This document shows, piece by piece, positions 2,250 to 17,987 of a stretch of DNA of 41,240 bases. Both the position numbers and the translations under genes were made by a program. The notes under the pieces were generated by a model. That model searched no databases, was not told where the DNA came from, and saw only the letters and a program-made list of their open reading frames with translations. The DNA comes from Limisphaerales bacterium (GTDB lineage Bacteria; Verrucomicrobiota; Verrucomicrobiia; Limisphaerales; CANJXF01), in the NCBI GenBank assembly GCA_046595315.1, contig JBKJOZ010000133.1, positions 1-41,240 of the forward strand, in the 5' to 3' direction. The stretch's first letter is position 1; each line of letters opens with the position of its first letter.

Positions 2250-3584
2250 ATGATAACTAAAAAACAGAAACCTTTTTGGAAGCGTAGTGCGAATTTATAT
2301 GCGACACTGGCGAGCATTGGCTTGGCAATTGCCTCGGGAGACGCCTTTGCCAGCACGGATTATGGTCCGGCCATTTGGAATCAGGCCTACTCGGGCCATT
2401 GGTACACTTCCGGCAATGGGCATAAGTTCCACGTCATTCACGATATGGAAGGGTATTATCTTTCGACGATTTCCTATTTCAAACAATCCGGCACTTCGGC
2501 CAGCGTTCATTATTGCGTCAATGGCTTGAAAGATTCCTCCTCAGACAGTCCGGCGGGCGAAATTACCCAGATGGTTAGAGAGTCGTATTATGCCTGGCAC
2601 GTGCTTTGTTGGAATACCCACTGCACCGGAACGGAACACGAAGGTTTTGCGAGTAACCCGGCATGGTTCACCGAAGCCATGTATCAGGCTTCTGCGGGAA
2701 TTTCCCGGCACCTGGCCGAAAAATTTGGCTACGGAAAAGATCGAAATCATATCGTGGGCCACAATGCGAAAAGTGTTTCTGGTTGGCCGACGTGGGCATC
2801 AAATAATCTTGGCGTTGATCCCTATTGCAACACTCATACCGATCCCGGCTCGTATTGGGATTGGAGCCATTACATGTCGCTCGTAAAAAACGCCGGGGCT
2901 GGAGCGGTCAAACCCGCCGTCTTCCGCGCCCCCAGCAATTGGCTAACCCGCAGTACTTTAGACGGCGGTCCAGCAGATGATGACTTCAATTACGGCATTG
3001 GTGGCGATATCCCGATCATGGGCGATTGGGATGGCAACGGCACAATCACCTGTGGAGTGGTTCGCAACGAGAGCGGAAATTTGTTCTGGTATTTGAATAA
3101 TTCGATCTCCGGCGGCGCGGCGGACATTGTTTTCTCTTACGGAAATGCGGGCGACGTGCCCGTGGCCGGTGATTGGGACGGCAATGGCACTTGGACTCCG
3201 GGCGTTGTTCGAGGCGTGAATTGGCTCTTGCGCAATTCCAACTCTGGCGGCGCATCGAGCATTTCCTTTAACTATGGAATTACTGGCGACAAATTCATCG
3301 TGGGCGATTGGGATGGCAACGGCACCTTCACCCCGGGAGTCGTTCGAGGCAGCAGTGGGTGGTACTTGAGCAATTCCAACACCAGCGGCGCGGCGGATAT
3401 TTCGTTCGCCTATGGAACCACCGGCGATATTCCCATCGTCGGTGACTGGAATGGAAACGGCACTTGGACCTGCGGCGTGGTGCGCGGAAACACCTGGCTG
3501 CTCAACAATTCCAACACCGGAGGCACAGCAGATATTTCCTTCGGATATGGCACAGGCGGCGACATCTTTTTGGTTTGGAGATAA
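2250..3584 (+). CDS. Secreted N-acetylmuramoyl-L-alanine amidase (Amidase_2 type) with C-terminal GDWDGNG (FG-GAP/VCBS-like) repeat domain
   Basis: Signal peptide ending AFA-S; Zn-amidase motifs VIHDMEG, SVHY, AWH, GTEHEG, IVGH, HTDPG; four GDW(D/N)GNGT.T.GVVR repeats. ATG at 2250 preferred over TTG at 2163. Confidence 0.85.
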   Translation: MITKKQKPFWKRSANLYATLASIGLAIASGDAFASTDYGPAIWNQAYSGHWYTSGNGHKFHVIHDMEGYYLSTISYFKQSGTSASVHYCVNGLKDSSSDSPAGEITQMVRESYYAWHVLCWNTHCTGTEHEGFASNPAWFTEAMYQASAGISRHLAEKFGYGKDRNHIVGHNAKSVSGWPTWASNNLGVDPYCNTHTDPGSYWDWSHYMSLVKNAGAGAVKPAVFRAPSNWLTRSTLDGGPADDDFNYGIGGDIPIMGDWDGNGTITCGVVRNESGNLFWYLNNSISGGAADIVFSYGNAGDVPVAGDWDGNGTWTPGVVRGVNWLLRNSNSGGASSISFNYGITGDKFIVGDWDGNGTFTPGVVRGSSGWYLSNSNTSGAADISFAYGTTGDIPIVGDWNGNGTWTCGVVRGNTWLLNNSNTGGTADISFGYGTGGDIFLVWR

Positions 3585-3846
3585 TTGAAAAAAATTGAAA
3601 TTAACACAACGCTCGTTGGCAACAACGAGCGTTTCGCTTTTATAAAGTTTGGAGCGGAGTTGGTGAGACTACAGCCTGCGCTAAAATCAAATTACGAAAA
3701 CTGGTTGGAGAATATTTCACTGACTCCCGCTCCTCAAAGCGTCCGCAGCGTCGCGCGGAAGTTTGCCCCATCAAAATTTTCCCGCTTTCTCATTGACCAT
3801 TACTCCCATTCTGTGCGCGAATATAAGACCTTTAATGGGGTAATGC

Positions 3847-6800
3847 ATGGCGAAGACGACACGTAAAAGTAGTTCAACAACCCGGTCGGGAAACACCACA
3901 AAGTATGATGCGCACCACACGGTGCTCTCCAAAACTTATGGCGCGCTGGCGGATCTGCGCCGGGAACTTTCAGATTCAAAAGCGGCGGTAGCTGAACGCA
4001 CCGAACTCCTTCGCATTTTCGCCGATTGCAGCGATTCGCAACGCGCCTGGCTGTTGCTCGAAGATTATTTCGAAAAACTTTCACTCTCGCGCAAAGATTT
4101 TGCCGGTCAGGATTGGTGGCCTCGGCTGATGTCGGTCCAAGGCAAAAAACGCCTCGAAGAAACCGCCATTCTTTTCCTGCGCTCGAATCGCCCGCTGCCC
4201 ACCGAACTGACTTCCCACGCCAATTTGGATAGTTTTGCCGAGATCGAACAATGTGAAAAAGAACAAGAGTTAGTCAAACAACTGGAGCATTGGCTCTTTC
4301 CGCCCGCGCCAGTGCATCTGGATGCGCCACGCGCGACGTTACGTGTTTTATGCGAACCCCTTCCCGCCGAAGAAGAATCCGCACTCTTCGCGCTTTCTGT
4401 AAAATTCCACTTGTTCCGACCACGCACCGGCGAAAAATCCAAAACGCTTTCGGAAATTATCGAGCTCACCACCCGCTCGGCACACGAGCAGGAACTTTTT
4501 TCTCCGGCGGATTGGGAATTCATACAATGGCTGGCCGAAACACATCCCGATCCCGAGGGACTTTGGGATAACCTCACCTTGACTGGCTTGGAACTGCTAC
4601 AATGGCTGGTGCGCTGGGGCGACAACGAGCGGTTGCAATTTGTCCACAGCCCAAGTTTGGTAAAATTTCATGGCCATCTTGCCGATCTCAAACCGAACCT
4701 CGAACAGATTGAAAACGAACTTTCCTTTACCCACAATTTGCTACTGCCGAATGGCGAACAACATTCGTTAGATGGCGTGCAGTTTTTTGCCGGGCGCCCT
4801 TCCCTCGTGTTAATCGCCAACACTTTTTATCTTTTGCGCAATGGCCCGCCGACAGATTTGCTCGATTCCTGGGCGAAAAAGAAATCATTGCCCGTTAAAA
4901 AACTTAGCCACCGTTTGCTCACGAAACTCCGCAAAACCCAGCCGACCCAAGGTGTCGACTGGGAACAACTTTGCGTCGCTCACACCGCGAAACCTCAATT
5001 TACTTTCGAACTCAACGATGCAACGGTGCGCCTTCGGTTGCAGGCGCGCAGCGAACGCGACCAAACGCTTTGGCATTGGACTGGACACGAGTGGCAATTG
5101 ATTGATCCAAAAATTAGCCTGGATCAAAAGCCGGAGATTTTAGACGACCCACGCCTCGATCCCCCGACGCAATGGTTGCGTCGTTTGGATTGGTTTATTT
5201 CCGAGCCGGGAGTCTGGATCAGCGATGCCAACGAAAATTTTCTCAACTCGCTCGCAACCGTCTGGGGAACCCGCCCCGCCGAAGCGGATTATTTAGGAAA
5301 CCCCGCTTTTCATCGCTTGTTTTTGCAACCGCGACAAGCGCGTCCGCACCTCATCGTCAAAGGCAGCGGCATCGATTGGTTGTCCGTTTCCACCGAATGG
5401 GAAATCGAAGGTTTGAAACTGACGGCGGCAGATTTGCAACGTTTACAAACGGCCACCGGACGCTTCGTCAATTTGCCGGACGCAGGTTGGCTGGAACTCG
5501 ATTCCGGCGCAGTGCAATCCGCCCATGAAGCCTTCGCCGATTTGGGTCTGGATGGCCTGAGCGCCATCCCGCAAAAACTGGGCATGGAACAAGTCGCGCA
5601 TCTGGACGAAAACGGTCTGAAACGTTTCGTTGATTCGCCGGAAGTCCGCGAGCTTCGTAAAAAAATTGCGGAGTTCACCGGAATTGTTTCTACACCTCTG
5701 CCGGAAAAATTGACCGCTGAATTGCGTCCCTATCAAAAAGAAGGGTTTGATTTTCTTTGTCACCTCACGCGCCACAAGCTCGGAGGTATCTTGGCCGACG
5801 ACATGGGTTTGGGCAAAACTTTGCAAACACTCACGTGGCTTTCCTGGCTACAAGCGCAACATCCAAAAAATCCAAAACCCGCGCTCGTGATTTGTCCCGC
5901 GTCCGTCTTGCACAATTGGCGGCGCGAAGCGGAAAAATTCACCCCGCACTTGAAAGTTCTTGTGCTCGAAAGTGGTTCCGCGCGACACAATTTACGGCAG
6001 AAAATTCCACAACACGACATTATCGTCACCAACTACGCGCTGCTGCGACGCGACCTTGAAGCGCTTCAGAAATTTTCGTTTCGCGCGGCCGTGCTCGACG
6101 AAGCTCAGTTCATCAAAAATCCAGATGCGCAAATCACACAGTCGGTCAAACAATTGGGAGCGGAACAAAGATTGGCGCTGACGGGAACGCCGCTCGAAAA
6201 CCGCCTGCTCGATCTTTGGAGCATCACCGATTTTATTCAGCCTGGATTTTTAGGAACAAAGGAACATTTTTCCGAAAAATACGAACCACGCGTCAGCATA
6301 GACCGCGGAGCACGGAACGCGGAAGGTGCCGAAGCCGCCGTTCCAAGTTCCGAACTGGAAGCGCGCATCGCTCGACGCCGACTCTCCTCGAAACTACGCC
6401 CACTCATGTTGCGTCGTCTCAAAAAACAGGTCGCTCGCGATTTGCCCGACCGCATCGAGGAACGCCGCGATTGCGATTTGGGCGAAGCACAACGCAAACT
6501 TTATTTGGCGGAATTGCGGCGCAGTCGCGATCAAGTCATGAACACCGTGGCCGAAAAAGGTTTGGGCAAAAGCACGATTCACGTCTTGGCAGCGCTCACA
6601 CGTTTGCGTCAGATTTGCTGCCACCCGCAACTGGTGGGCAACGACGCCGCGTCCGGCAAAACCGAAACGTTGTTTGAATTATTAGAGCCGCTCCTCGCCG
6701 ATAACCAAAAAGTTTTGGTCTTCAGCCAATTCGTCCAGATGTTGCGACTATTGGAAAAAGAATGTCAGCAACGCAACATTTCCACCCACATTTTGACGGG

Positions 6801-7161
6801 CGAAACCAAGGATCGCCAAGCCGTCGTCAACGCCTTTCAAGACGACCCAAAAGGCTCGCTCTTTTTGCTCAGCCTGCGCGCCGCTGGAACGGGCCTGAAC
6901 CTCACAACTGCCAGTTACGTGGTGCTTTATGATCCCTGGTGGAATCCAGCGGTCGAAGCACAAGCGATCGATCGTTCCCATCGCATCGGACAAACTCGCA
7001 CCGTCAACGCCTATCGCTTGATCGCACCGGGAACCGTCGAAGAAAAAATCTGGGATTTGCAGCAACGCAAAGCGCAAACCATTGCGGATGTTTTGGGTGA
7101 AGAAGGCTTCGCGCGCAACCTGTCCCAAATCGATCTAGAATATCTTTTCTCCGAGGACTGA
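3847..7161 (+). CDS. SNF2-family (DEAD/DEAH-like) helicase/ATPase with a long N-terminal extension
   Basis: LRPYQ, ILADDMGLGKT (Walker A), LDEAQ (Walker B), LTGTPLEN, LVFSQF, GTGLNL, DPWWNP, QAIDRSHRIGQ. Confidence 0.93.
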   Translation: MAKTTRKSSSTTRSGNTTKYDAHHTVLSKTYGALADLRRELSDSKAAVAERTELLRIFADCSDSQRAWLLLEDYFEKLSLSRKDFAGQDWWPRLMSVQGKKRLEETAILFLRSNRPLPTELTSHANLDSFAEIEQCEKEQELVKQLEHWLFPPAPVHLDAPRATLRVLCEPLPAEEESALFALSVKFHLFRPRTGEKSKTLSEIIELTTRSAHEQELFSPADWEFIQWLAETHPDPEGLWDNLTLTGLELLQWLVRWGDNERLQFVHSPSLVKFHGHLADLKPNLEQIENELSFTHNLLLPNGEQHSLDGVQFFAGRPSLVLIANTFYLLRNGPPTDLLDSWAKKKSLPVKKLSHRLLTKLRKTQPTQGVDWEQLCVAHTAKPQFTFELNDATVRLRLQARSERDQTLWHWTGHEWQLIDPKISLDQKPEILDDPRLDPPTQWLRRLDWFISEPGVWISDANENFLNSLATVWGTRPAEADYLGNPAFHRLFLQPRQARPHLIVKGSGIDWLSVSTEWEIEGLKLTAADLQRLQTATGRFVNLPDAGWLELDSGAVQSAHEAFADLGLDGLSAIPQKLGMEQVAHLDENGLKRFVDSPEVRELRKKIAEFTGIVSTPLPEKLTAELRPYQKEGFDFLCHLTRHKLGGILADDMGLGKTLQTLTWLSWLQAQHPKNPKPALVICPASVLHNWRREAEKFTPHLKVLVLESGSARHNLRQKIPQHDIIVTNYALLRRDLEALQKFSFRAAVLDEAQFIKNPDAQITQSVKQLGAEQRLALTGTPLENRLLDLWSITDFIQPGFLGTKEHFSEKYEPRVSIDRGARNAEGAEAAVPSSELEARIARRRLSSKLRPLMLRRLKKQVARDLPDRIEERRDCDLGEAQRKLYLAELRRSRDQVMNTVAEKGLGKSTIHVLAALTRLRQICCHPQLVGNDAASGKTETLFELLEPLLADNQKVLVFSQFVQMLRLLEKECQQRNISTHILTGETKDRQAVVNAFQDDPKGSLFLLSLRAAGTGLNLTTASYVVLYDPWWNPAVEAQAIDRSHRIGQTRTVNAYRLIAPGTVEEKIWDLQQRKAQTIADVLGEEGFARNLSQIDLEYLFSED

Positions 7162-7164
7162 AAC

Positions 7165-7317
7165 TTGGCGGGCGGTGGGCGAAATCGATGGCCACGGATC
7201 GCATGGGCCGGGTTCCCGCATCTTTCTAATGCGGGGCTGGAAAACACAACCTCGGGCTCAACGCGCACGGCGCCGTGCTGGTGATTTCGCGAGATGGTTA
7301 GCGAGTAATTTGCCAGC
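7165..7317. ncRNA. Candidate structured ncRNA (long imperfect hairpin, possibly 6S-like)
   Basis: Nested inverted repeats in an intergenic region: GCGAAATC/GATTTCGC (7179/7290), CACGG/CCGTG, GGGCC-GGGTT/AACCT-GGCTC, CCCGCAT/ATGCGGG. Family not confirmed. Confidence 0.35.
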
Positions 7318-7450
7318 AGGGTTTCACCTATCATTCTTGTCGGTAAAGCCTGATTGACAGGCGACGCTAATAGGTTTTCGATGGCAGCGACACCACCCGA
7401 AAATTCAGAGGACGGCTGTGTCTAAACGTCAAATCCCAAACCTAAAATAT

Positions 7451-9696: not shown

Positions 9697-10883
9697 TGAA
9701 AAAAGTCATCGTCGCTTTGCTATTTCTGAATCTTGCGCTGGGCGTTGCTCTTGTTTATTACCGGCAAACGCAGCCTTTTGTTTTAAAAAATAACATCACC
9801 AAAAAACCAACGCTTTCTAGCACAGAAACAATTTCCACAACTAATTTTAACTGGCGCCAGATTGAGTCCGAAGATTACAGAAAATACATCGCAAACATGC
9901 GTGGCATCGGTTGCCCGGAAGAGACCATTCGCGACGTCATCATCGCCGATGTGAACCGGCTTTATTCTGCGCGCCAGGCTGAGCTGCTCAATGAAAATCG
10001 CGCACGCAAAACCTGGTGGCAGCCCAATAAATCCAGCTCGGTTCAGAGTCGAACCGCGTCGCAACAACTTGTGCGTGATTTGGAAAAGGAAAAACGCGCC
10101 CTCGTTCATGAACTGCTTGGGATTGATCTCGATGAGGAATCGGAAAACTACGCGCTCGCCCCGATTGAAACTTCCTGGAAACTCGATTCCATCCCGGCTG
10201 AAAAACGTGAAGCAGTCCGCACTCATTTGCAAAAATTTGATACCCTTCAAAAATCGCTCCTGGGGGAAGCTGATACAAACGAGGACGCGCCTGACTGGCA
10301 AACTCTTCGTGAGGCCTACCAAAAGCGGGAAGCTGAATTGACGAAACTTCTTTCACCGGCTGAGTTGGAGGATTTTCAATTGCGCAACGATGAAGTCGCG
10401 GAAACTTTGCGGCATCATCTGGCGGCATTTCATCCGACCGAACAGGAATTTCGCGACCTCTTTCGCAACCTGAAGAAACACCAGGACGAATTTGCCTACA
10501 CAAATCCCAATGACGAACAATCTGCGCAACAAAACCGCGCGGGCCTTGACCAGGTCAACGAACAAATCAAAACTCAGCTGGGAGAGCAACGCTATGCTGA
10601 ATATCAACGGGCCCAGGGCTACGAGTTCCAAAATCTTTATTGGCTTACGCAGCAGTATGATTTGCCCGAGGAGAGCGCGATAAAAATTTTCGAAGCGAAC
10701 AAGTCTGCCCGCCAACGTTTGGAAAAACTTCAGTCCAACGTGTCACTTAACGAAGAACAAAAAGCGGCTGGCTTGCGGCAGTTACAAGAAGAGTTACAGG
10801 CGACGATTAAAAATTCCCTCAGTGACAGTGCGTTTCGCTATTTTCAGCGAGGGGGGAACGCGCATTGGCTACAGCAGAATTAA
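9696..10883 (+). CDS. Membrane-anchored, all-helical hypothetical protein
   Basis: N-terminal TM helix; WRQIESEDYRKYIANMRGIGCPEETIRDVI segment; repeated 'L..LL/LG.E.Y..Y.R' helical units; TAATG overlap with the upstream gene. Confidence 0.8.
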   Translation: MKKVIVALLFLNLALGVALVYYRQTQPFVLKNNITKKPTLSSTETISTTNFNWRQIESEDYRKYIANMRGIGCPEETIRDVIIADVNRLYSARQAELLNENRARKTWWQPNKSSSVQSRTASQQLVRDLEKEKRALVHELLGIDLDEESENYALAPIETSWKLDSIPAEKREAVRTHLQKFDTLQKSLLGEADTNEDAPDWQTLREAYQKREAELTKLLSPAELEDFQLRNDEVAETLRHHLAAFHPTEQEFRDLFRNLKKHQDEFAYTNPNDEQSAQQNRAGLDQVNEQIKTQLGEQRYAEYQRAQGYEFQNLYWLTQQYDLPEESAIKIFEANKSARQRLEKLQSNVSLNEEQKAAGLRQLQEELQATIKNSLSDSAFRYFQRGGNAHWLQQN

Positions 10884-12019: not shown

Positions 12020-12448
12020 TTAATTGTCAAAAATTGAGAAGCGACTACCGGGCGACCATGGGGCAACGTCGCCGCCAGAAAAGCCAAGGTGAGTGTCGGT
12101 TGCGAAAATGGAATCTGCCACAAGGTTGGGTTTATAATTATCTGGATAAAGCGGATTCACTGGAAAAATAACCGGGTCGTACGGCGGAAAAGGCGCGGTT
12201 ATAATTTCGTAAGCACCCACAAATGTGCGGGCAATGCTCCGATGAACTCCGTGGATAAAACCGGTGGTATAAGCCGCTTCAGGACCATTGAACAAAGCAG
12301 TTTGTTCCATCGAACGGCGGAATTCTCCACCCCGAGGAATTTCCGTGAAATTAGTGATCCCGCGGCCAAGTTTGTGTTCAGGACCAGCGCAACCGACGGA
12401 AAACAGGGCCAAACCAGCCAAGGCAATCGAAAAAAGGAAATTTCGCAT
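12020..12448 (-). CDS. Lipoprotein resembling the exosortase-system-associated TIGR04073 family
   Basis: Lipobox-like SVGC; KLGRGITN..EI...G...G....R...G.YEI.T.P pattern characteristic of that family. Confidence 0.7.
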   Translation of the reverse strand: MRNFLFSIALAGLALFSVGCAGPEHKLGRGITNFTEIPRGGEFRRSMEQTALFNGPEAAYTTGFIHGVHRSIARTFVGAYEIITAPFPPYDPVIFPVNPLYPDNYKPNLVADSIFATDTHLGFSGGDVAPWSPGSRFSIFDN

Positions 12449-12532
12449 AAATTTTGTCTTAAGTTAATTCAAGTTACCGCCAAACGATTTCTTGTAAAGC
12501 GAGTTTTCTTTGACAGTTCGAAAACCTCGCCC

Positions 12533-13426
12533 TCACTTTGGTGCCGCTTCTTTTTCGGACGGTCTGGATACTTTTCCATGTGGGTTTACTCCATTTTTGC
12601 GAAAGGCGTTTACCAGCATTATTCCAATCAGCACCAAAACGAGTTCCCCACCCAATGTGCAAACGATGGCTGCTCCTGTTGGCCAATCAAATTGATAGGA
12701 CGCAAACAAACCGACAACGCTGGCGAGCGTGGCGGCGATCCAGCCGATCAGCAGCAACCAGCGAAGTTTTGTTGCCAGGAAATTTGCGCAAACCGCCGGG
12801 ACAATCAGGTAGGAAAAAACCAGCAGCACGCCGCCGATGTGAACGAATGTTGTCACCACGATTCCGAACAGCGCGTAGAAAAGAAAATCCCAGCCGCGCA
12901 CCGAAAGTTTTTCCGCTTCAGCTCGCTCCGGATCAAAGGAAATCATGAGAAACTTTTTCCGAAAAATAAAATGCGCCACGGCAATCACGACAAAGAGGAT
13001 AAACGGTTTCAAAACTTGCTCGCCGGTCTGCAAATAGAGCAACTCGCCCACCATGGTTTGTTTCAATTCTTCGTTGCCGTGCGGGCTGTTGTTCAACAAT
13101 AAAATTCCTCCCGCCGCTGCCACCACGTAGATAATTCCAATCAGGGCTTCTTGCGGAACGCGGGTGTGATTCCTGGTTCTCGTGAGCGAGAAAACCGCCG
13201 CGCCTATCAGCGTGAATCCAACGGACATGGCGTAGCTTTGCCAATCATGCGGGTCGTGATGTAACAAAATGGCAACGCACGTCCCGAGGGTGGCGACTTG
13301 CGCCAACGCCAGATCGACGAAGATTACTTCGCGGCGAATAATGTGCAGGCCGAGGTAAACCAATAATCCCGGCAATGCCAGGCAAGCCACCGTCGGCCAT
13401 AACATGAATCTTAATGCGTCACTCAT
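12533..13426 (-). CDS. Metal ABC transporter permease (ZnuB/MntB-like, ABC-3)
   Basis: Many TM helices; YLGLHIIRREVIFVDLALAQVA, EALIGIIY, GGVLLVFSYLIVPA. Confidence 0.9.
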   Translation of the reverse strand: MSDALRFMLWPTVACLALPGLLVYLGLHIIRREVIFVDLALAQVATLGTCVAILLHHDPHDWQSYAMSVGFTLIGAAVFSLTRTRNHTRVPQEALIGIIYVVAAAGGILLLNNSPHGNEELKQTMVGELLYLQTGEQVLKPFILFVVIAVAHFIFRKKFLMISFDPERAEAEKLSVRGWDFLFYALFGIVVTTFVHIGGVLLVFSYLIVPAVCANFLATKLRWLLLIGWIAATLASVVGLFASYQFDWPTGAAIVCTLGGELVLVLIGIMLVNAFRKNGVNPHGKVSRPSEKEAAPK

Positions 13427-13438
13427 AAATATAAAATA

Positions 13439-13462
13439 GTAGGAGCCGACGTAAGTAGGCTC
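13439..13462 (+). repeat. GTAG-type REP-like palindrome
   Basis: GTAG-GAGCC-GACGTAAGTA-GGCTC in the SBP/permease spacer. Confidence 0.5.
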
Positions 13463-13477
13463 TGATTTTTTATAAAA

Positions 13478-14377
13478 TTATTTTTTCCCTTCAAATGCTT
13501 TTGCCAGCGATTTTACCGCGCCGTCCATCCAGGTTTCATAGGTTTCTGAAGTGCCCCGTGGAAACGTGGGAAAATCGACCACCACTCCGCCCGTATGTCC
13601 TGCGACCGCTTCTGCCGTTTTACGATTTTGATACGGTTGAGCCAAAATCACTTTTGTATTTTCTGTTTTCATCTTCGTAATCACTGCGGCCAGATGCGCG
13701 GGAGTCGGTGGGATCCCCGGTTTCGGTTCGAGAAATAAATCCATTTTCAACCCAAAACGTTTCGCAAAATAAGGCAACGAATTGTGATACGTCACCACTT
13801 GCTGTCCGGCAAAGGGCGCGAGCATTTTTTGCCATTCCGCCATTTTTGCGTCGAGTCGTTCGTTGAACTTTTTCAAATTCGCTTTGAACAGGTCGCACGA
13901 TTTCGCATCAAGTTGGCAAAAGGCATTGGCAATATGTTCGGCCACAATTTTTGCGTTGAGCGGATCGGTCATGTAATGCGGATTGCCTGCAGCGTGAATG
14001 TCGCCTTTCGAGCGGTCCAGGGAACTAGGAATTTCCAACAGCGAAATACCTTCACTGCAAGAAATTCGTCCAGGTTTCCCCGCTTCGATTTTTGAGTTGC
14101 GCGAGCCATCGACGAGCGGAGGCAACCAACCCACTTCTAATTCCGCCCCGCCTTCGATGAGGGCGTCGGCGCGATTTAGTTTCACCACGAAACTCGGTTT
14201 GGCATCGACGAAATGCGGATCTTCCGTCGGCTTGGCGAGGGTGACGAGGTCGATTCTGTCCCCACCAATTTCTTGCGCAATCGCACCGAAATCGGTGGTG
14301 GTGGCGACGACGTTTAATTTCGCGTGCGCCGAAACAGCAAACAAAGTTGCTGCAAAAAGACTAAATAATTTTTTCAT
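13478..14377 (-). CDS. Zn/Mn ABC transporter substrate-binding protein (ZnuA/TroA family)
   Basis: Signal peptide ending AHA; VVATT, EDPHF, GAELEVGWL, HAAGNPHY, YHNS, EPKPGIPP. Confidence 0.92.
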   Translation of the reverse strand: MKKLFSLFAATLFAVSAHAKLNVVATTTDFGAIAQEIGGDRIDLVTLAKPTEDPHFVDAKPSFVVKLNRADALIEGGAELEVGWLPPLVDGSRNSKIEAGKPGRISCSEGISLLEIPSSLDRSKGDIHAAGNPHYMTDPLNAKIVAEHIANAFCQLDAKSCDLFKANLKKFNERLDAKMAEWQKMLAPFAGQQVVTYHNSLPYFAKRFGLKMDLFLEPKPGIPPTPAHLAAVITKMKTENTKVILAQPYQNRKTAEAVAGHTGGVVVDFPTFPRGTSETYETWMDGAVKSLAKAFEGKK

Positions 14378-14423: not shown

Positions 14424-15917
14424 TCAAAACTTATGTGCCCCATGTGCTCCGAGGAGGAATTCCAATTGCAGCCAAACGGAATGTTCGGTTCCGAAGTGTT
14501 CGCCTTGATCGTAATTATATTGCAGTCGCAGCTTGGAAAATTCGCTCGGGTAAAATGTCAGCACTGGTGAAACGCGATACCGCTCTCCGCGAAACTGGTC
14601 TTGTGAATCAAATGCATCGGAATTGCCGCTCGCATAATCGCCGCGAATTCCAGTCACCCAACGCGGTTTGAATCCCCACAACACCTGCGAATACGCGCCC
14701 CAATCTTTGATATTTTCCGAACGCAACGGTGTGGGCGCGAACGCATCAGCACCTGCGCCGAACCGGCGATAAATCGCTTCGGTTTGCCACGAGACAAATG
14801 GAAAACCCGCCTGCGCATTCGCCGGTTTCCATTTCCAGAAAATGTCCGCGCCGTAAATTTCCGTCCGACTGTGCGGGCCGGTGTCGTTTGCGCCGAACGC
14901 TCCCGAAAGTCCGCCGACCAACGTTTGCGTGTCGGTGATTTCAAATGAAGAAACAACGCGTGGCGTGAACAATAAATCCTGCGGCCCGCGCAAATGGCGA
15001 TCAGTTGTGGCGCGCCCGGCAAAACGATTTACGCCGGTGCCATCGTCCTCACCCGTGTTTCTAAAACTGTGCGCGGTGCCACCTTCACCGTCGGAAATAC
15101 CGAGAAATAATTCCGTGTAAAACGGCGTGGGCGCGAGCCACGAAAGTTGCGTCCCCACATTGCGCAAACCGTCCGGGCCAAAAGCGCGCGTCGAAATAAT
15201 CGGCGAATCCACAAAAGCCCATTGATGCGGATGCTGCGGATTTTGTCGCCCGAACGCGGTGAAGAATTGTCCGGCCTTCAATTGCAAATTCCCGGGCAGC
15301 GACGTGGATTGCAGAAACGCTTCCTCCAATTCGACGGCGGTTTCGTTGTTGTTTTCCAGTTTGAAAACGATGTTCGCGAAACCTTTGAAGTATGGATCCA
15401 CCGCGCCGTCGAGAGCGATTTCCGCATTGCGCAGGGAAAATCCGCGCTTTTGCGGATCGTGATCGCCGAGTTGCAGTTGCGCGGAAGGATCGCCAGCGGA
15501 AGAAAAACCGGCGTCGATCAGCGCATCAAAACTGATGTTCATGTAAGCCGATCCAGCGCGCGCGATGGTCATTGGGCCGGAAAGCTGTGAGTTTTGAATT
15601 TTAAGTTTTGAGTTGGGAACGGAATTTGTTTCGGGATCTTTGACAAGTTCCGCTGCTAATTCTGTTTCGAGTTTTTTCTGCTCCTCCGTTTTTGGCGCAA
15701 CGAGGGCTGGAGAGGTTTGTGTTTTTGTAAACTCATCCAACTTTTTCGTGAGCGCTTCGATTTGTTGCTGTTGCGCGCGCGTAACTTTGTCGAAACTTTC
15801 CTGCATCTGCTGCAATTGCATTTTGAATTGCGCTACTTCATTGGTCGCTTGAGCCGAAAGCGTCATTGCGCTCAGGCAAAGGGCAAACGACAACCCTACT
15901 ATTTTAAATTTTTTCAT
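14424..15917 (-). CDS. Outer-membrane beta-barrel/porin with N-terminal coiled coil, probably for metal (Zn) uptake
   Basis: Signal peptide, Q/E-rich coiled coil, AVDPYF, ELEEAF, FGRQNPQHPHQW, SEFSKLRLQY and C-terminal FLLGAHGAHKF; sits directly upstream of the metal SBP and permease. Confidence 0.85.
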   Translation of the reverse strand: MKKFKIVGLSFALCLSAMTLSAQATNEVAQFKMQLQQMQESFDKVTRAQQQQIEALTKKLDEFTKTQTSPALVAPKTEEQKKLETELAAELVKDPETNSVPNSKLKIQNSQLSGPMTIARAGSAYMNISFDALIDAGFSSAGDPSAQLQLGDHDPQKRGFSLRNAEIALDGAVDPYFKGFANIVFKLENNNETAVELEEAFLQSTSLPGNLQLKAGQFFTAFGRQNPQHPHQWAFVDSPIISTRAFGPDGLRNVGTQLSWLAPTPFYTELFLGISDGEGGTAHSFRNTGEDDGTGVNRFAGRATTDRHLRGPQDLLFTPRVVSSFEITDTQTLVGGLSGAFGANDTGPHSRTEIYGADIFWKWKPANAQAGFPFVSWQTEAIYRRFGAGADAFAPTPLRSENIKDWGAYSQVLWGFKPRWVTGIRGDYASGNSDAFDSQDQFRGERYRVSPVLTFYPSEFSKLRLQYNYDQGEHFGTEHSVWLQLEFLLGAHGAHKF

Positions 15918-16008
15918 AATTTTCTCCGTATTAACTGCATCGAAATTTTGCGCGTGATTGCGCTCTAAAAACTAAAGTGAATTGAAACAAGCCGCCCCAA
16001 TGGACGGT

Positions 16009-16347
16009 TTAAGCGAGTGGAGAAAGAAGGACAGGCGGAGCGCGCGAGGCGGAAAATCGATACGTGTGGTCAGAAAAAACGTTAAAATCCTCAATGCCAA
16101 TCAGCGAGACCAAACCAAAGTGGGGTTGAATTTCGATAACGATTGGATCGCTGGCGACGAGCTGTTGCTGTTCAAAAATTGTGATGGCGCATTGATGAGA
16201 CGGTTCCGAGGCATCTTTATGCAATTGCTCATGCAGCGAGCGGTCCGCAGAGAGAAACAGCGAGAGAAAAAGAACTGGAATCAGCAGGAAGGGCAGCGCC
16301 CGTTTGCTCCATTGCGCCAGAGAGAAAAATTTTCGTTCCAGTTGCAA
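16009..16347 (-). CDS. Small DUF2946-like leader protein (hydrophobic N-terminus, His/Cys motif, C-terminal RAPP)
   Basis: TM/signal-like [22 protein letters not shown]...HQCAIT, C-terminal SRAPP; first gene of the metal-uptake operon. TTG start is uncertain. Confidence 0.75.
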
Positions 16348-16355
16348 GTGAGTTA

Positions 16356-16383
16356 AAGCTAATCAGCCTCACTTTTTTTTCAA
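16356..16383 (-). promoter_or_regulatory. Putative sigma70 promoter of the RAPP leader/metal operon
   Basis: Minus strand TTGAAA-16 nt-TAGCTT, 8 nt before the TTG start (near-leaderless). Confidence 0.35.
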
Positions 16384-16439
16384 GAGGAGAAAATAATTGC
16401 CGATTGACGCGCTTCCAGTCTCTGAGGATTTTATCCGCC

Positions 16440-17987
16440 GTGAAAATTCAGCGTGCGCTTATTTCTGTTTTCGACAAAACTGGCTTGCTCCCTTTTGCGC
16501 AAACTTTGCGCGATGCCGGTGTGGAAATTATTTCCACGGGCGGCACGGCGAAATTTCTTCGTGAACAGGGAATTACCGTCAGCGACTTGAGCGCCTACAC
16601 CGGCTTTCCCGAAATGCTCGATGGCCGGGTCAAGACGTTGCATCCGAAAATTCACGGCGGCTTGCTCTACATTCGCGGCAATGCCGAACATGAAGCCGCG
16701 ACAAAAAAGCACGAAATCAAACCCATCGATTTGGTCGTGGTGAATCTTTATCCGTTCGAGCAAACCGTCGCAAAGCCGAACGTTACTTTGCCGGAAGCGA
16801 TTGAAAATATCGACATCGGCGGGCCTTCCATGCTGCGCAGTGCGGCTAAAAATCACGAAAGCGTGACGGTCATTATTGATCCAACGGACTACACTGAGGT
16901 GTCGAACCAAATCAAAGTAAACGGAAATACTGCGGCGCAATTTCGGCAGAAGTTGGCCGCCAAAGTTTTTGCGCGCACCTCCGCTTACGACGGTGCGATT
17001 GCAAAATATTTGGCGAAACAATTTGGCGGAAACGAAAGCGCGTTTCCTGACGAAATAATAATTTCTGCGACAAAATCGCAATCACTCCGCTACGGAGAAA
17101 ATCCACACCAGCAAGCCGCGCTTTATGGAGATTTTCAAAATTTTTTCCAGCAATTGCACGGAAAGGAACTTTCCTACAACAACATTCTGGATCTGACGGC
17201 TGCCGCGAGTTTGATCGGCGAATTTTCCGGCGAATTGCCGACACTTGCTATTTTAAAACACACCAATCCGTGCGGAGTCGGGCGCGGGGAAACTTTGCGC
17301 GAAGCGTGGGCACGCGCGTTTGCCACGGACAAACAAGCGCCGTTCGGCGGAATTATCGCCACGAACCAAACGTTGGACTTGGCTTGTGCCGAGGCGATTT
17401 CAGAAATTTTCAGCGAAGTGATTGTCGCGCCGGATTTTGCGCCGGACGCATTGGCTTTGTTGCAGAAAAAGAAAAATCTTCGACTGATCAAGTTGTTGAA
17501 AACTCCGTCAAAAGCGGATGTTCTCGAGGTGCGGAGTGTGACGGCGAATTCATTTTTAATACAGGAACGCGATTTGAAAACGATCACGGTAAACGATTTA
17601 AAAATCGTCACGAAACGGAAACCAACTGAGGCCGAATTGGAAGCGATGCTTTTCGGCTGGCGCGTGGTCAAGCATGTGAAATCAAACGCAATTGTTTACG
17701 CTTCAGATTGTTCTACTTTGGGAGTCGGAGCAGGTCAGATGAGTCGCGTGGATTCGAGCCGGATTGCGGTTTGGAAAGCGGGTGAAGCCGGTTTGTCGTT
17801 AAAAGGGAGCGTGGTGTGCAGCGATGCTTTTTTCCCGTTCGCCGATGGATTGATTGCCGCCGCGGAGGCGGGAGCAACCGCCGCGATTCAACCGGGCGGT
17901 TCCATGCGCGATGCTGAGGTCATTGCAGCGGCAGATGAGCGCAATCTAGCGATGGCGTTTACGGGCATCCGACACTTTCGGCACTGA
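16440..17987 (+). CDS. purH: Bifunctional AICAR transformylase/IMP cyclohydrolase
   Basis: [74 protein letters not shown]-terminus. GTG start at 16440. Confidence 0.98.

Follow-up and report, generated by a model that had tools for sequence, protein, structure and literature searches.

The first gene of a metal-uptake operon in a soil genome of the Verrucomicrobiota, located within a 41,240-nt stretch of DNA that was analysed as a whole (hereafter the window), appears, on a slender balance of probability and by analogy with known systems, to encode an export-targeted, cis-acting and metal-responsive arrest switch, which would control an outer-membrane channel, a ZnuA-type binding protein and a ZnuB-type permease. 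The parts of this reading are held with different firmness. It is practically certain that the leader is a conserved and translated gene, and RAPP-dependent arrest of the leader is regarded as quite probable in view of the characterised arrest peptides. Metal-responsive control of the operon is favoured with fair confidence on similar grounds, and coupling by masking of the downstream start site rather than by Rho is put forward more tentatively, at a little short of an even chance. Stalling, metal binding and the sign of the regulation in the leader are matters that we infer by comparison with related peptides. The lineage is a non-proteobacterial one, as had been supposed from the sequence.

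Minus-strand reading together with the list of open reading frames places the leader at 16009..16347 of the minus strand, with 112 aa and a TTG start, which confirms the reading frame and all coordinates given in the original prediction. The signal-like N-terminus and the HEQLH...HQCAIT motif were likewise found at the residues expected. The former consists of a basic n-region and an 18-residue hydrophobic stretch ending in LSA; residues 8-34 (16246..16326, minus strand), preceded by basic residues, are modelled by AlphaFold2 as a signal-peptide-like or transmembrane helix, the block-mean pLDDT of residues 11-40 being 84-94, and the helix segment is hydrophobic in 21/21 aligned homologues. It is followed by a candidate metal-binding motif recognised by its conservation, H39-x3-H43-x-D45...H51-x-C53-x2-T56 (residues 39-56; 16180..16233, minus strand), in which HEQLH represents residues 39-43 and HQCAIT residues 51-56. 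H39, H43, D45, H51, C53, A54 and T56 are invariant in the alignment of 21 sequences, and among 149 sequences H43 and C53 remain invariant, with H39 and H51 conserved in at least 90%. The Cys motif of the window leader reads C53-A-I-T56, with CxxT in place of CxxC as had been anticipated, and the 45-residue distance to RAPP known from CruR is retained between T56 and R102.

A candidate arrest motif, also defined by conservation, occupies residues 96-105 (16033..16062, minus strand). Y96, R97, S99 and S101-P105 are invariant in 21/21 sequences, and the same alignment is free of gaps between the His/Asp/Cys motif and the arrest motif. SRAPP (residues 101-105, with RAPP at 102-105 of 112) is present as described, but it stops short of the very C-terminus, as another seven residues, VLLSPLA, come after it. 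RAPP has its second Pro codon at 16035-16033; by analogy with the toeprint reported for CruR (PMC12992588), the P site of the stalled ribosome would be expected on CCG 16038-16036 and its A site on CCT 16035-16033. The third positions vary synonymously over the invariant RAPP codons, and therefore selection acts on the peptide. Upstream of the gene, the conserved hexamers TTGAAA (16383-16378) and TAGCTT (16361-16356), separated by a 16-nt spacer, constitute a promoter-like pair (16356..16383, minus strand) that ends 8 nt before the leader TTG start; hexamers and a 16-17-nt spacing are kept in 5/5 near relatives with differing spacer sequence. A sigma-70 consensus scan returned 0 sites and did not call this pair, which is described here as a promoter-like element of the leader.

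The leader is a member of a large family of the Verrucomicrobiota. The first homologue search returned 20 homologues of the leader, and a profile search with the leader family recovered 1945 cluster representatives at E<=1e-3, the features in common being the signal-like helix, HxxxHxD...HxCxxT, a spacer of about 45 residues (43-45) and RAPP or RGPP. The predicted conservation of RAPP at homologous loci was found in 21/21 aligned sequences, and among 141 parsed relatives 122 carry RAPP and 15 RGPP. In 119 of the 141 the spacer from CxxX to this motif is 45 residues long, 21 have one of 44 and a single relative has 43; the Cys motif is CxxT in 114 and CxxC in 16, and the Pro-Pro pair lies 0-14 residues from the C-terminal end in all but one.

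Kinship with DUF2946, the family of CruR and CutF, is judged likely from sequence comparison, although it escaped the direct HMM search. Pfam and NCBIfam models gave no match to the window leader at E<=1, the DUF2946 model (PF11162, gathering score 23.7 bits) included, and a six-frame search of the window's genome with PF11162 returned no match. A link between the families is suggested instead by the CxxC-bearing relatives, by weak matches to PF11162 in 18/149 relatives (best E 1.2e-4) and by hhalign, in which the 149-sequence profile aligned to eight canonical DUF2946 sequences from the phylum with 89% probability (E 2.2e-6, 43 columns), an alignment that is confined to the Cys motif and the LH motif behind the helix and sets C53-A-I-T on CxxC. 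The corresponding comparison with the 21-sequence profile gave 63% probability, and three canonical DUF2946 members from the phylum have spacers of 43-45 residues by hand count. As for other families, CbtB, a small one-helix cobalt-transport subunit, is weakly matched by 15/149 relatives, which was judged to reflect the helix and the His composition. DUF2607, an Atlas lead with a score of 0.93 at rank 27, is absent from the Pfam matches of the leader and its relatives.

It may be asked whether the gene mainly serves to make a small working protein that binds metal in the membrane or periplasm, for instance as a chaperone or as an accessory to the transporter, with a C-terminal motif that is there for the protein and not for regulation. 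Such a protein would be in keeping with the confident model of the motif region (residues 21-60, block-mean pLDDT 92-94), with the weak CbtB matches and with a gene that is always co-oriented with transport genes. The C-terminal half, however, is modelled as coil (block-mean pLDDT 62-70), and what stays invariant in this half is precisely an arrest motif of known type, set at a constant distance from the Cys, after which free variation sets in. Moreover, RAPP and RGPP are reported to be avoided in proteomes generally, Verrucomicrobiota included (PMC12992588), and the long spacers carry start-site complementarity. A role of this kind is considered very improbable.

Behind the leader, after a spacer of 91 nt (80-235 nt in relatives), the expected porin-SBP-permease operon was found on the minus strand. 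The first gene after the leader (14424..15917) encodes a secreted, porin-like outer-membrane protein of 497 aa with a signal peptide, which belongs to no Pfam family and has a weak LbtU-porin match only (E 0.02). It is followed by a ZnuA-family periplasmic metal-binding protein, AztC-like (13478..14377; PF01297, 8e-55), by an ABC-3 metal permease, ZnuB/AztB-like (12533..13426; PF00950, 1e-35; AztB, 9e-24, below cut-off), and by a TIGR04073-family lipoprotein (12020..12448; TIGR04073, 1.2e-20, above cut-off), which is possibly the last gene of the operon and has the same position in L003 and L004. The best NCBIfam model of the binding protein is AztC (4.5e-34, below cut-off), and in the PDB it is matched best by 6xpn, 5w56 and 5kzj, where three of its His residues fall on His in the alignment. 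A search of the genome for the ZnuC ATPase yielded only generic ABC ATPases of 29-34% identity. For the porin, the nearest Atlas cluster has been named automatically as 'Zinc-regulated TonB-dependent outer membrane receptor family'; this is taken as a lead only.

The porin-like gene is syntenic behind the leader in 16/26 loci (L002-L027), and the set porin-ZnuA(-ZnuB) follows the leader in 8/26 of these loci and in 4/20 larger regions. Among the larger regions retrieved, 18/18 leader-gene pairs have the leader first and then a signal-peptide outer-membrane gene, an arrangement that recurs in 24/29 class-wide loci. Other leaders precede TonB receptors; ZnuD is the best model for 11/15 of those tested (331-455 bits, with every ZnuD score, like every AztC score, below the curated cut-off), four of the 15 are not ZnuD-like, and the TonB-copper model reached 25-74 bits in six receptors tested. 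Because the partner genes are zinc-type, the sensed metal is most likely Zn(II), an assignment drawn from gene context for which the chances seem somewhat better than even. The suggested retuning away from copper holds as far as the partner genes are of zinc type and not of copper type, and the leader looks like a CruR/CutF relative that has been retuned from copper to another metal, probably zinc.

In the mechanism proposed, the ribosome would stall with the two Pro codons (16038-16033) in the P and A sites, in the manner of CruR, whose arrest at RAPP has been demonstrated in vitro (PMC12992588). At this point the 45-residue spacer would span the exit tunnel and the translocon, and because it fills both, the metal motif would have just emerged on the periplasmic side. 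The stalled ribosome would sit on or against the CU-rich tracts 16056-16048 and 16029-16019, which could otherwise pair with the porin Shine-Dalgarno (SD) region at 15928-15921, so that a lasting stall would keep the porin start open and the uptake genes would be made. Metal, most likely Zn(II), on the emerged motif would end the stall through folding or a pulling force, upon which the ribosome would finish and leave and the start site would be masked again.

The SD region of the porin, CGGAGAAA (15921..15928, minus strand), was recognised by sequence reading and includes GGAGAAA at 15927-15921, three nt before the ATG at 15917-15915. A CU-rich box, CUUCUUUCUCC (16019..16029, minus strand), contains TTTCTCC at 16025-16019, nt 8-14 after the second Pro codon; both elements of the anti-SD switch in the original prediction are thus in place and form a perfect 7-bp complement. 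Two other tracts can pair with the same site. One is formed by the F-S-A codons, UUUUCCGCC (16048..16056, minus strand), CU-rich, situated 5' of the stall site and chosen as consensus partner by RNAalifold, of which 16056-16050 can form 7 bp with the SD in the window, including one G-U. The other is GUUUUUUCUG (16071..16080, minus strand), 33-42 nt 5' of the stall P site, which is preferred in the partition function and, when 15893-16104 of the minus strand (212 nt) is folded, in both the minimum-energy and the centroid structure. Over both strands of the window together, the heptamer TTTCTCC was counted 17 times vs 7.9 expected, with eight of the copies on the minus strand, and from this frequency a chance occurrence is estimated at ~0.6% per 30-nt stretch and ~8% in the ~430-nt leader plus spacer.

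That the single helix 16025-16019 : 15927-15921 constitutes the switch, to the letter as first drawn, is on this evidence unlikely. The pair is perfect and correctly placed, it is present in the minimum-energy fold of 15900-16060, and it recurs unchanged in L003 and, altered on both sides, as CUUCUCC:GGAGAAG in L002. Nevertheless, its pairing with the SD falls to zero once more upstream sequence is included: with 60 nt more, the window SD is predicted to pair with 16080-16071 and not with the post-Pro-Pro box. Two further tracts pair about as well as the named one (-9.9 vs -9.9 kcal/mol), which leaves it among three partners of similar standing. Covariation was not seen in the 12 short-tail relatives, whose box variants fail to follow GGAGAA/GGAAAA and are mismatched if anything. 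On general geometric grounds, a ribosome stalled at RAPP would take in only the first 2-3 nt of 16025-16019, and this also speaks against the single helix. Nor did the in silico folds of the leader-spacer region bear out a special structure, as they were not more stable than shuffles (z = +1.40, +0.12 and +0.73). The segment 16080-16071 lies outside the footprint of one stalled ribosome, and masking of the stalled footprint did not raise the accessibility of the window SD (0.57 to 0.39).

The comparison of relatives supports, at the level of sequence, an anti-SD or anti-start segment after the arrest codons as a family-wide principle, and it is in this more general form that the anti-SD idea is supported in principle. 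In the porin clade, GGAGAA or GGAAAA is found at the same distance from the ATG in 15/17 aligned loci, with AGGACAA in the other two, and the SD is predicted to be paired in 16/17 loci (unpaired share <=0.31), its mean unpaired share being 0.13 vs 0.26 in shuffles. The main predicted partner is the F-S-A codons in 11/17 loci. Among the 12 short-tail relatives RNAalifold also selected these codons 5' of RAPP and not the 3' box, the covariation term being just -0.25 kcal/mol. This helix has a single variable pair, at which it is kept in 9/12 and broken in 3/12.

On the 3' side, the pyrimidine fraction of nt 7-22 after the Pro-Pro codons is 0.75 vs 0.52 in the rest of the spacer (21 loci), and this richness is seen whether the segment is coding (six loci) or follows the stop codon (15 loci). 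In a comparison of cognate with swapped partners, the 30 nt after Pro-Pro form stronger pairings with the start region of the same locus than with one taken from another locus, both in group A (n=21; z -3.1, 2/3000 permutations) and in group B (n=23; z -4.8, 0/3000 permutations), figures that are not true probabilities because the loci are related. Four to five other segments per group gave no signal, save the far-upstream control segment of group B (z -3.0) and the 'pre' segments (z about -2). These values come from a repetition within GC groups, the same test over all 44 loci having been confounded by GC content, with a control segment that also scored. The post-Pro-Pro:start helices differ by clade, examples being UUUCUCC:GGAGAAA, CUUCUCC:GGAGAAG, UUGUCCUG:CAGGACAA, GCUGAAC:GUUCAGC, GCUGAGU:ACUCAGC and GUCAGCCUGG:CCAGGCUGAC, and compensatory variants of the CU box occur in L002 and L004. 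The share of start-region pairing that goes to stall-proximal partners reaches 0.3 or more in only 26/45 loci, and in duplex energy the stall zone is the best in only 12/27 loci when set against three upstream control zones.

The same leader and the same arrest could also be coupled to the operon as in CruR, where the stalled ribosome would cover a C-rich, G-poor Rho-loading site around and after the RAPP codons; read-through into the porin would then take place only during the stall, and release would lead to Rho termination in the 91-nt spacer. This is a serious possibility, even if a rather doubtful one. CruR, the only homologue in which the coupling step has been dissected, is reported to work so, through Rho termination, not SD masking, and without need of its signal peptide (PMC9426467). 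Profiles in 60-nt windows show C exceeding G by +16 to +33% at a peak whose centre falls on the FSASRAPP codons and the CU box in 11/11 profiled loci of one motif-defined group. The assembly also contains a rho gene, and the CU box is retained behind the stop codon even in TonB-receptor loci without a recognisable SD (L005, L013). However, much of the C excess follows from the invariant peptide itself, through its Phe, Ser, Ala, Arg and Pro codons, and in the three loci profiled from clades further removed (L030, L033 and L041) the peak lies away from the arrest site. Rho coupling also leaves unexplained the match of the post-Pro-Pro segment to its own start region and its clade-specific sequences.

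A terminator-like, six-bp GC-rich hairpin followed by CUUGUUUCAA (15992..16007, minus strand) begins 2 nt after the leader stop codon. An intrinsic terminator was dropped as the main mechanism, one hairpin having been found vs 1.5 expected. The hairpin bears, nonetheless, on a regulation of opposite sign, as in CutF, in which metal would cause or prolong the stall and downstream expression would fall with metal; when metal is absent, the ribosome would reach the stop codon and open the spacer structure or the hairpin 16007-15992. Copper is reported to induce the CutF stall (bioRxiv 10.1101/2025.02.05.636593). Since the hairpin starts 2 nt past the stop codon, only a terminating ribosome would cover it, which fits such a scheme. 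Yet the hairpin is not above chance, because one site was found vs 1.5 expected in shuffles, and similar hairpins with U-runs are confined to the nearest relatives, L002 and L003. A stalled ribosome, moreover, would still cover the complementary segments, and the start would be opened rather than closed. The inverted sign is for these reasons regarded as improbable.

If the preferred reading is correct, with metal ending the stall and the start site being masked upon release, the leader would represent the first zinc-sensing nascent chain, in which a His3-Asp-Cys set reads periplasmic Zn(II) at RAPP and gates ZnuD receptors or porin-ZnuABC through uncovering of the start site; for this full statement the chances are put at less than even. 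To our knowledge, the metal-sensing arrest peptides described so far (CruR and CutF) respond to copper only, and a literature search for a zinc-responsive bacterial arrest peptide found none. Post-transcriptional zinc control would then exist beside or instead of Zur in much of the Verrucomicrobiota class of the host, and the CruR/CutF design would be retunable from copper to another metal by its sensing motif, with the 45-residue ruler kept. A branch with another ligand set and zinc-type uptake genes would make the ruler plus RAPP a general metal-sensing platform, and the pair CxxC vs HxxxHxD...HxCxxT would offer a natural comparison of how ligand binding releases a stalled ribosome. The family is large, comprising about 2000 clusters at 50% identity, unseen by Pfam and annotated as hypothetical proteins only; a family model would improve the annotation of operons in Verrucomicrobiota. 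The clade-specific complementarity between post-arrest and start segments provides ready designs for compensatory mutations.

Among the known systems, ApdA, ApdP and the wider RAPP uORFs resemble the leader in bearing a C-terminal RAPP after a localisation signal (PMC7897499, PMC10951233, PMC10987492, PMC12992588), and arrest at RAPP is reported for CruR, ApdA and ApdP in sources that include PMC12992588. In contrast, ApdA and ApdP monitor Sec or YidC components, and the neighbours of the leader in the window are metal-uptake genes, not Sec or YidC pathway genes. The 2025 survey describes RAPP/RGPP uORFs that precede genes for TonB-dependent receptors and for metal homeostasis in Gram-negative bacteria of many phyla (PMC12992588); the words zinc, ABC transporter, substrate-binding and porin are absent from its main text. 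In Caulobacter crescentus, the Zur-activated zinc-efflux operon czrCBA-zntA begins with the gene of the DUF2946 protein CC2720 (PMC4176598), and the resemblance to the leader lies in this DUF2946-type first gene of a zinc-related operon. Unlike the window operon, however, that operon serves efflux and not uptake, its regulation is ascribed to Zur, and CC2720 was never examined as an arrest peptide.

CutF of Rhodobacter capsulatus, also of DUF2946, is described in two preprints by Ozturk et al. (bioRxiv 10.1101/2025.02.05.636593 and 10.1101/2022.11.11.516240) as an exported nascent chain that senses periplasmic metal while attached to the ribosome, its C-terminal proline stall opening an mRNA structure in which the next gene's ribosome-binding site is hidden; the same traits are proposed for the window leader. 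According to the same accounts, it differs in having CxxxC and an EF-P-dependent PPP, where the window leader has RAPP, and in controlling a detoxifying oxidase that metal switches on, whereas the window leader heads uptake genes; its sign, with metal causing the stall, is opposite to the one proposed here.

The closest counterpart is CruR (Bp2923) of Bordetella pertussis, a DUF2946/PF11162 protein with a 45-residue spacer to RAPP (Roy et al. 2022, PMC9426467). Each heads a metal-uptake operon and is set apart by a long spacer from the gene of an outer-membrane transporter, both combine an N-terminal export signal, a Cys-containing motif, the 45-residue spacer and RAPP a few residues from the end, and relatives of the window leader precede TonB-dependent receptors as CruR does. 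The window leader is distinguished by CxxT in place of CxxC together with the invariant HxxxHxD...H set, by its escape from the Pfam model, by partners (ZnuA, ZnuB, ZnuD-like) of zinc type and not of copper type, and by its origin in the Verrucomicrobiota, the text of the CruR paper naming Proteobacteria and a few Planctomycetes, Firmicutes and Deinococcus (PMC9426467). Finally, CruR couples its arrest to the operon via Rho, whereas for the window family the comparative evidence points to start-site masking.

The leader is encoded on the minus strand at 16009-16347 by an open reading frame of 112 codons with a TTG start, and the minus-strand reading together with the ORF listing reproduced this frame and every coordinate of the original prediction. 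A basic and then hydrophobic N-terminus is followed by HEQLH (residues 39-43), HQCAIT (residues 51-56) and SRAPP (residues 101-105); the last motif had been described as C-terminal and is present, but it lies near rather than at the C-terminus, because seven more residues come after RAPP. On the same strand, TTTCTCC at 16025-16019 comprises nucleotides 8-14 past the second Pro codon (16035-16033), and GGAGAAA at 15927-15921 stands three nucleotides ahead of the ATG at 15917. This ATG opens the gene of a 497-aa secreted protein without a Pfam family (14424-15917), termed the porin, behind which are located the genes of a ZnuA-family binding protein (13478-14377; PF01297, 8e-55), an ABC-3 permease (12533-13426; PF00950, 1e-35) and a TIGR04073 "exosortase-associated" lipoprotein (12020-12448), all on the minus strand. 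The lipoprotein also trails the transporter genes in the homologous leader loci L003 and L004, and in L002 a YHYH-domain protein (9835-10767, plus strand; PF14240, 3e-73) is found behind them. No ATPase gene occurs in the window operon (12020-14377, minus strand), though binding protein and permease are present; such a gene adjoins them in L003 and L024, and the 83%-complete assembly of the window harbors only generic ABC ATPases with 29-34% identity to the L003 enzyme.

Upstream of the leader, promoter-like hexamers (TTGAAA/TTGATA, 16-17 nt, TAnnnT) were observed at 16356-16383 on the minus strand and at the same position in L002, L003, L004 and L007. They are kept in five of five near relatives with differing sequence between them, and the pair ends 8 nt ahead of the conserved TTG start. 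The leader transcript may accordingly lack a 5' untranslated region or almost lack one, an uncommon arrangement with a UUG start. The divergent purH gene (16404-17987, plus strand), arranged likewise in L002 and L003, carries GGAGAAA at 16386-16392, 11 nt ahead of its listed TTG start, and its homologues suggest that the true start may be a Val a few codons downstream.

A word-indexed search returned 20 leader homologues, which are 97-141 aa long and have E values from 4e-40 to 5e-5; those that are named come from Verrucomicrobiota. Their alignment is ungapped between HQCAIT and the segment of residues 96-105 ending in RAPP, with H39, H43, D45, H51, C53, A54, T56, Y96, R97, S99 and S101-P105 invariant and the residues past the two prolines freely variable. 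RAPP is thus conserved at the homologous loci, as had been proposed for checking, and its invariant codons display synonymous third-position changes in the nucleotide alignment, a sign that the peptide is under selection. When 1.84 billion representatives were searched with a profile, 1945 proteins passed E<=1e-3 and 692 of them E<=1e-10. Among the best 149 of these 1945 relatives, 141 could be parsed for the motifs and eight that did not fit the expression were set aside; in the parsed set, the candidate arrest motif is RAPP in 122, RGPP in 15 and CGPP in 2. CxxX and Arg are 45 residues apart in 119 proteins, 44 in 21 and 43 in one, and, with a single exception, 0-14 residues lie between the two prolines and the C-terminus. 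Matches were detected in 36 of 401 sampled genomes of the phylum, and 25 of 35 matching genomes belong to one family of the window's class. Judged from sequence, the leader ORF is genuine and belongs to a large gene family, and a purely structural role for its protein appears very improbable. Weak matches to the cobalt-transport subunit CbtB were noticed in 15 of the best 149 relatives (best E 1.3e-3), and a DUF2607 cluster from Pseudomonadota has an Atlas score of 0.93 to the family.

The proposed search with the DUF2946 model PF11162, the family of the copper-sensing stalling leaders CruR (Bordetella pertussis) and CutF (Rhodobacter capsulatus), gave no match to the window leader at E<=1 and none anywhere in the window's genome, so the leader is not a DUF2946 member by that family's own criterion. 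Weak PF11162 matches were obtained in 18 of the best 149 relatives (best 1.2e-4). A profile of these 149, compared with eight canonical DUF2946 proteins of the same phylum, aligned at 89% probability (E 2.2e-6), placing C53-A-I-T on C-x-x-C and the post-helix LH motif on its counterpart; a smaller 21-sequence profile reached 63%. According to Roy et al. (PMC9426467), 45 residues separate CXXC and RAPP in CruR, a distance that deviates by no more than one or two across over 2000 proteins, and altered spacing impairs regulation; the window leader likewise has exactly 45 residues, from T56 to R102. From these sequence comparisons we conclude that the leaders probably form a divergent sister family of DUF2946, with Thr usually in place of the second Cys (CxxC in 16 of the 141 parsed relatives) and with an added His/Asp set, and the predicted change from CxxC to CxxT with extra histidines in a DUF2946-like ORF was correct.

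The genes behind the leader were surveyed at 26 loci (L002-L027), many of whose contigs end early. A homologue of the window porin directly follows the leader in 16, with ZnuA also behind it in eight and ZnuB in five, and in five others a TonB-dependent receptor with TonB, ExbB and ExbD takes the place of the porin. Class-wide, 24 of 29 loci have CxxX with RAPP, RGPP, CGPP or HAPP 48-51 residues on and a signal-peptide gene 45-210 nt downstream. Twenty larger genomic stretches provided 18 leader-gene pairs, namely 14 with receptor-length and four with porin-length proteins; ZnuA is next in all four porin-type pairs and ZnuB in three, and Plug and barrel domains were recognized in all five receptors tested. 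One genome (L079, G048:C1:107000-117000) contains two leaders separated by about 2.8 kb, each of which has HAPP at its end instead of RAPP; the first of them stands ahead of a TonB receptor and the second ahead of porin-ZnuA-ZnuB, or in the opposite order. Behind the ZnuD-like receptor of L084, a hybrid histidine kinase of about 1325 aa (3421-7395, minus strand; PAS, HisKA, HATPase and receiver domains) was noted, and an ORF of about 1405 aa occupies the same position in L085 (3212-7426, plus strand). In CutF, metal is reported to cause the stall (bioRxiv 10.1101/2025.02.05.636593), so the sign of control can be reversed; such a reversal is rated unlikely here, because uptake genes are preceded by a leader built like CruR.

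With regard to the metal, the zinc receptor ZnuD is the best NCBIfam model for 11 of 15 receptors (E 1e-98 to 6e-136), with scores of 331-455 bits that lie below the model's 950-bit cut-off; the other four are of another type, and a copper-receptor model scored only 25-74 bits in the six receptors compared. The best model for the window binding protein is AztC, and against its best PDB entries (6xpn, 5w56 and 5kzj) three query histidines, presumably its metal ligands, face His. His instead of Glu at the third site marks zinc-type binding proteins, and a His3-Asp-Cys ligand set suits Zn(II). The porin is consistently linked to ZnuA in Verrucomicrobiota, a related Atlas cluster carries Porin_O_P on 22% of its members, and the automatic name of the Atlas cluster nearest to the porin contains "Zinc-regulated", which is a lead only; the porin may represent an undescribed zinc-uptake porin family. 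Its N-terminal residues ~25-110 give weak matches to unrelated families and are taken as coiled-coil-like. In Caulobacter, a DUF2946 gene is reported as the first of a zinc-efflux operon (PMC4176598). The ZnuD-like receptors, the AztC-like binding protein and the His3-Asp-Cys set make zinc the best guess for the sensed metal, by a modest preference, with copper, manganese, cobalt and nickel as possible further candidates. Contigs C10, C409 and C378 of the window's assembly contain a single Fur-family gene and two open frames (448 and 393 aa) that match Rho_RNA_bind above cut-off; should the Fur-family gene be Fur and not Zur, zinc control of the operon could lie mainly with the leader.

A ribosome covers roughly 12-15 nt either side of its P site. 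By analogy with the CruR toeprint (PMC12992588), the P site of the stalled ribosome would be occupied by CCG (16038-16036) and its A site by CCT (16035-16033). These codons are flanked by two CU-rich tracts on the minus strand, the F-S-A codons (16056-16048) and a box containing TTTCTCC (16029-16019). The pyrimidine fraction of the box is 0.75 versus 0.52 in the rest of the spacer (21 loci), and its enrichment both where it is coding (six loci) and where it lies past the stop codon (15 loci) suggests that the RNA itself is constrained. The Shine-Dalgarno region of the porin gene (15928-15921 in the window) is mostly paired in the predicted folds of 16 of 17 porin-clade loci; the mean unpaired share is 0.13 versus 0.26 in dinucleotide shuffles, and nine loci do not exceed the 5th percentile of their own shuffles. 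The predicted partner is the F-S-A codons in 11 of the 17, the box in four to five, and a tract farther upstream in the window and L002. RNAalifold of 12 short-tail loci gave an 8-bp helix between UUCUCCGC (F-S-A) and GCGGAGAA (Shine-Dalgarno), whose single variable pair is CG in five, UA in two, UG in two and CA in three.

The strongest RNA evidence, drawn from sequence complementarity, spans the clades. A segment of 8-14 nt starting 1-8 nt past the second Pro codon is complementary to the RNA just 5' of, or overlapping, the next start codon, and the helix sequences vary by clade: UUUCUCC:GGAGAAA in the window and L003, CUUCUCC:GGAGAAG in L002, UUGUCCUG:CAGGACAA in L004, GCUGAAC:GUUCAGC in L033 and L034, GCUGAGU:ACUCAGC in L035, GUCAGCCUGG:CCAGGCUGAC in L039, 14-15 bp in L046, and nine or more bp in L037 and L042. 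This variety implies several independent instances of complementarity. When each 30-mer past the prolines was paired with every start region within its GC group, the cognate mean was -11.4 versus -10.0 kcal/mol in the low-GC group (21 loci; z -3.1, 2/3000 permutations as low) and -15.0 versus -11.6 kcal/mol in the high-GC group (23 loci; z -4.8, 0/3000), figures that are not true probabilities because the loci are related. For segments 5' of the arrest codons, z was -2.2 and -1.9. No signal came from the 30 nt of spacer that follow, from a downstream coding segment or from two far-upstream segments, apart from one far-upstream segment among the high-GC loci (z -3.0). When full partition functions were computed, the segment past the prolines was the leading class of start-region partner at 17 of 45 loci, and together with the arrest codons it accounts for at least 0.3 of start-region pairing in 26. 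Coupling through Rho, the mode reported for CruR (PMC9426467), would leave this cognate complementarity unexplained; rho is present in the assembly, and a C-over-G peak of +16 to +33% covers the arrest codons and box in all 11 loci of the window's clade profiled, but the codons of the invariant peptide account for much of this peak. Rho coupling is accordingly held to be possible though doubtful, and it could act together with start-site masking.

For masking of the porin start, the window itself is a weak point. Eight copies of TTTCTCC occur on the minus strand of the 41-kb window. A given 30-nt target would contain one with a probability of about 0.6%, so its position right behind RAPP is improbable as a coincidence; other leader sequences are also able to pair with the Shine-Dalgarno region. 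With 60 nt of upstream context, the predicted partner of this region is GUUUUUUCUG (16080-16071, minus strand) and the box receives none of the pairing, the duplex energies of box and upstream tract being equal (-9.9 kcal/mol). The proposed in silico folding gave no structure more stable than those of shuffled sequences. The upstream tract would lie beyond the footprint of one stalled ribosome but beneath a second one queued behind it. The original prediction that a stalled ribosome covers an anti-Shine-Dalgarno box and frees the porin start thus fits the family, given the cross-clade pairing, but in the window itself more than one helix would be possible.

The leader shares with CruR an export signal, a Cys motif, a 45-residue ruler, RAPP and a place as the first gene before an outer-membrane transporter, and start-site unmasking is already the mode of CutF and SecM. 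A 2025 survey already describes RAPP/RGPP uORFs ahead of TonB-dependent receptors and metal genes in many phyla (PMC12992588). In the portions of the literature consulted, no account was found of the CxxT plus His/Asp sensing motif, of a consistent tie to ZnuD-like receptors and porin-ZnuA-ZnuB operons, of the size of this Pfam-invisible Verrucomicrobiota leader family, or of clade-by-clade post-arrest complementarity, and the supplementary tables of PMC9426467 and PMC12992588 may list some such genes. Relative to those portions, the present leaders would be distinguished by their putative sensing motif, their zinc-type gene partners, the size of their family and a post-arrest complementarity that is rewritten from clade to clade.
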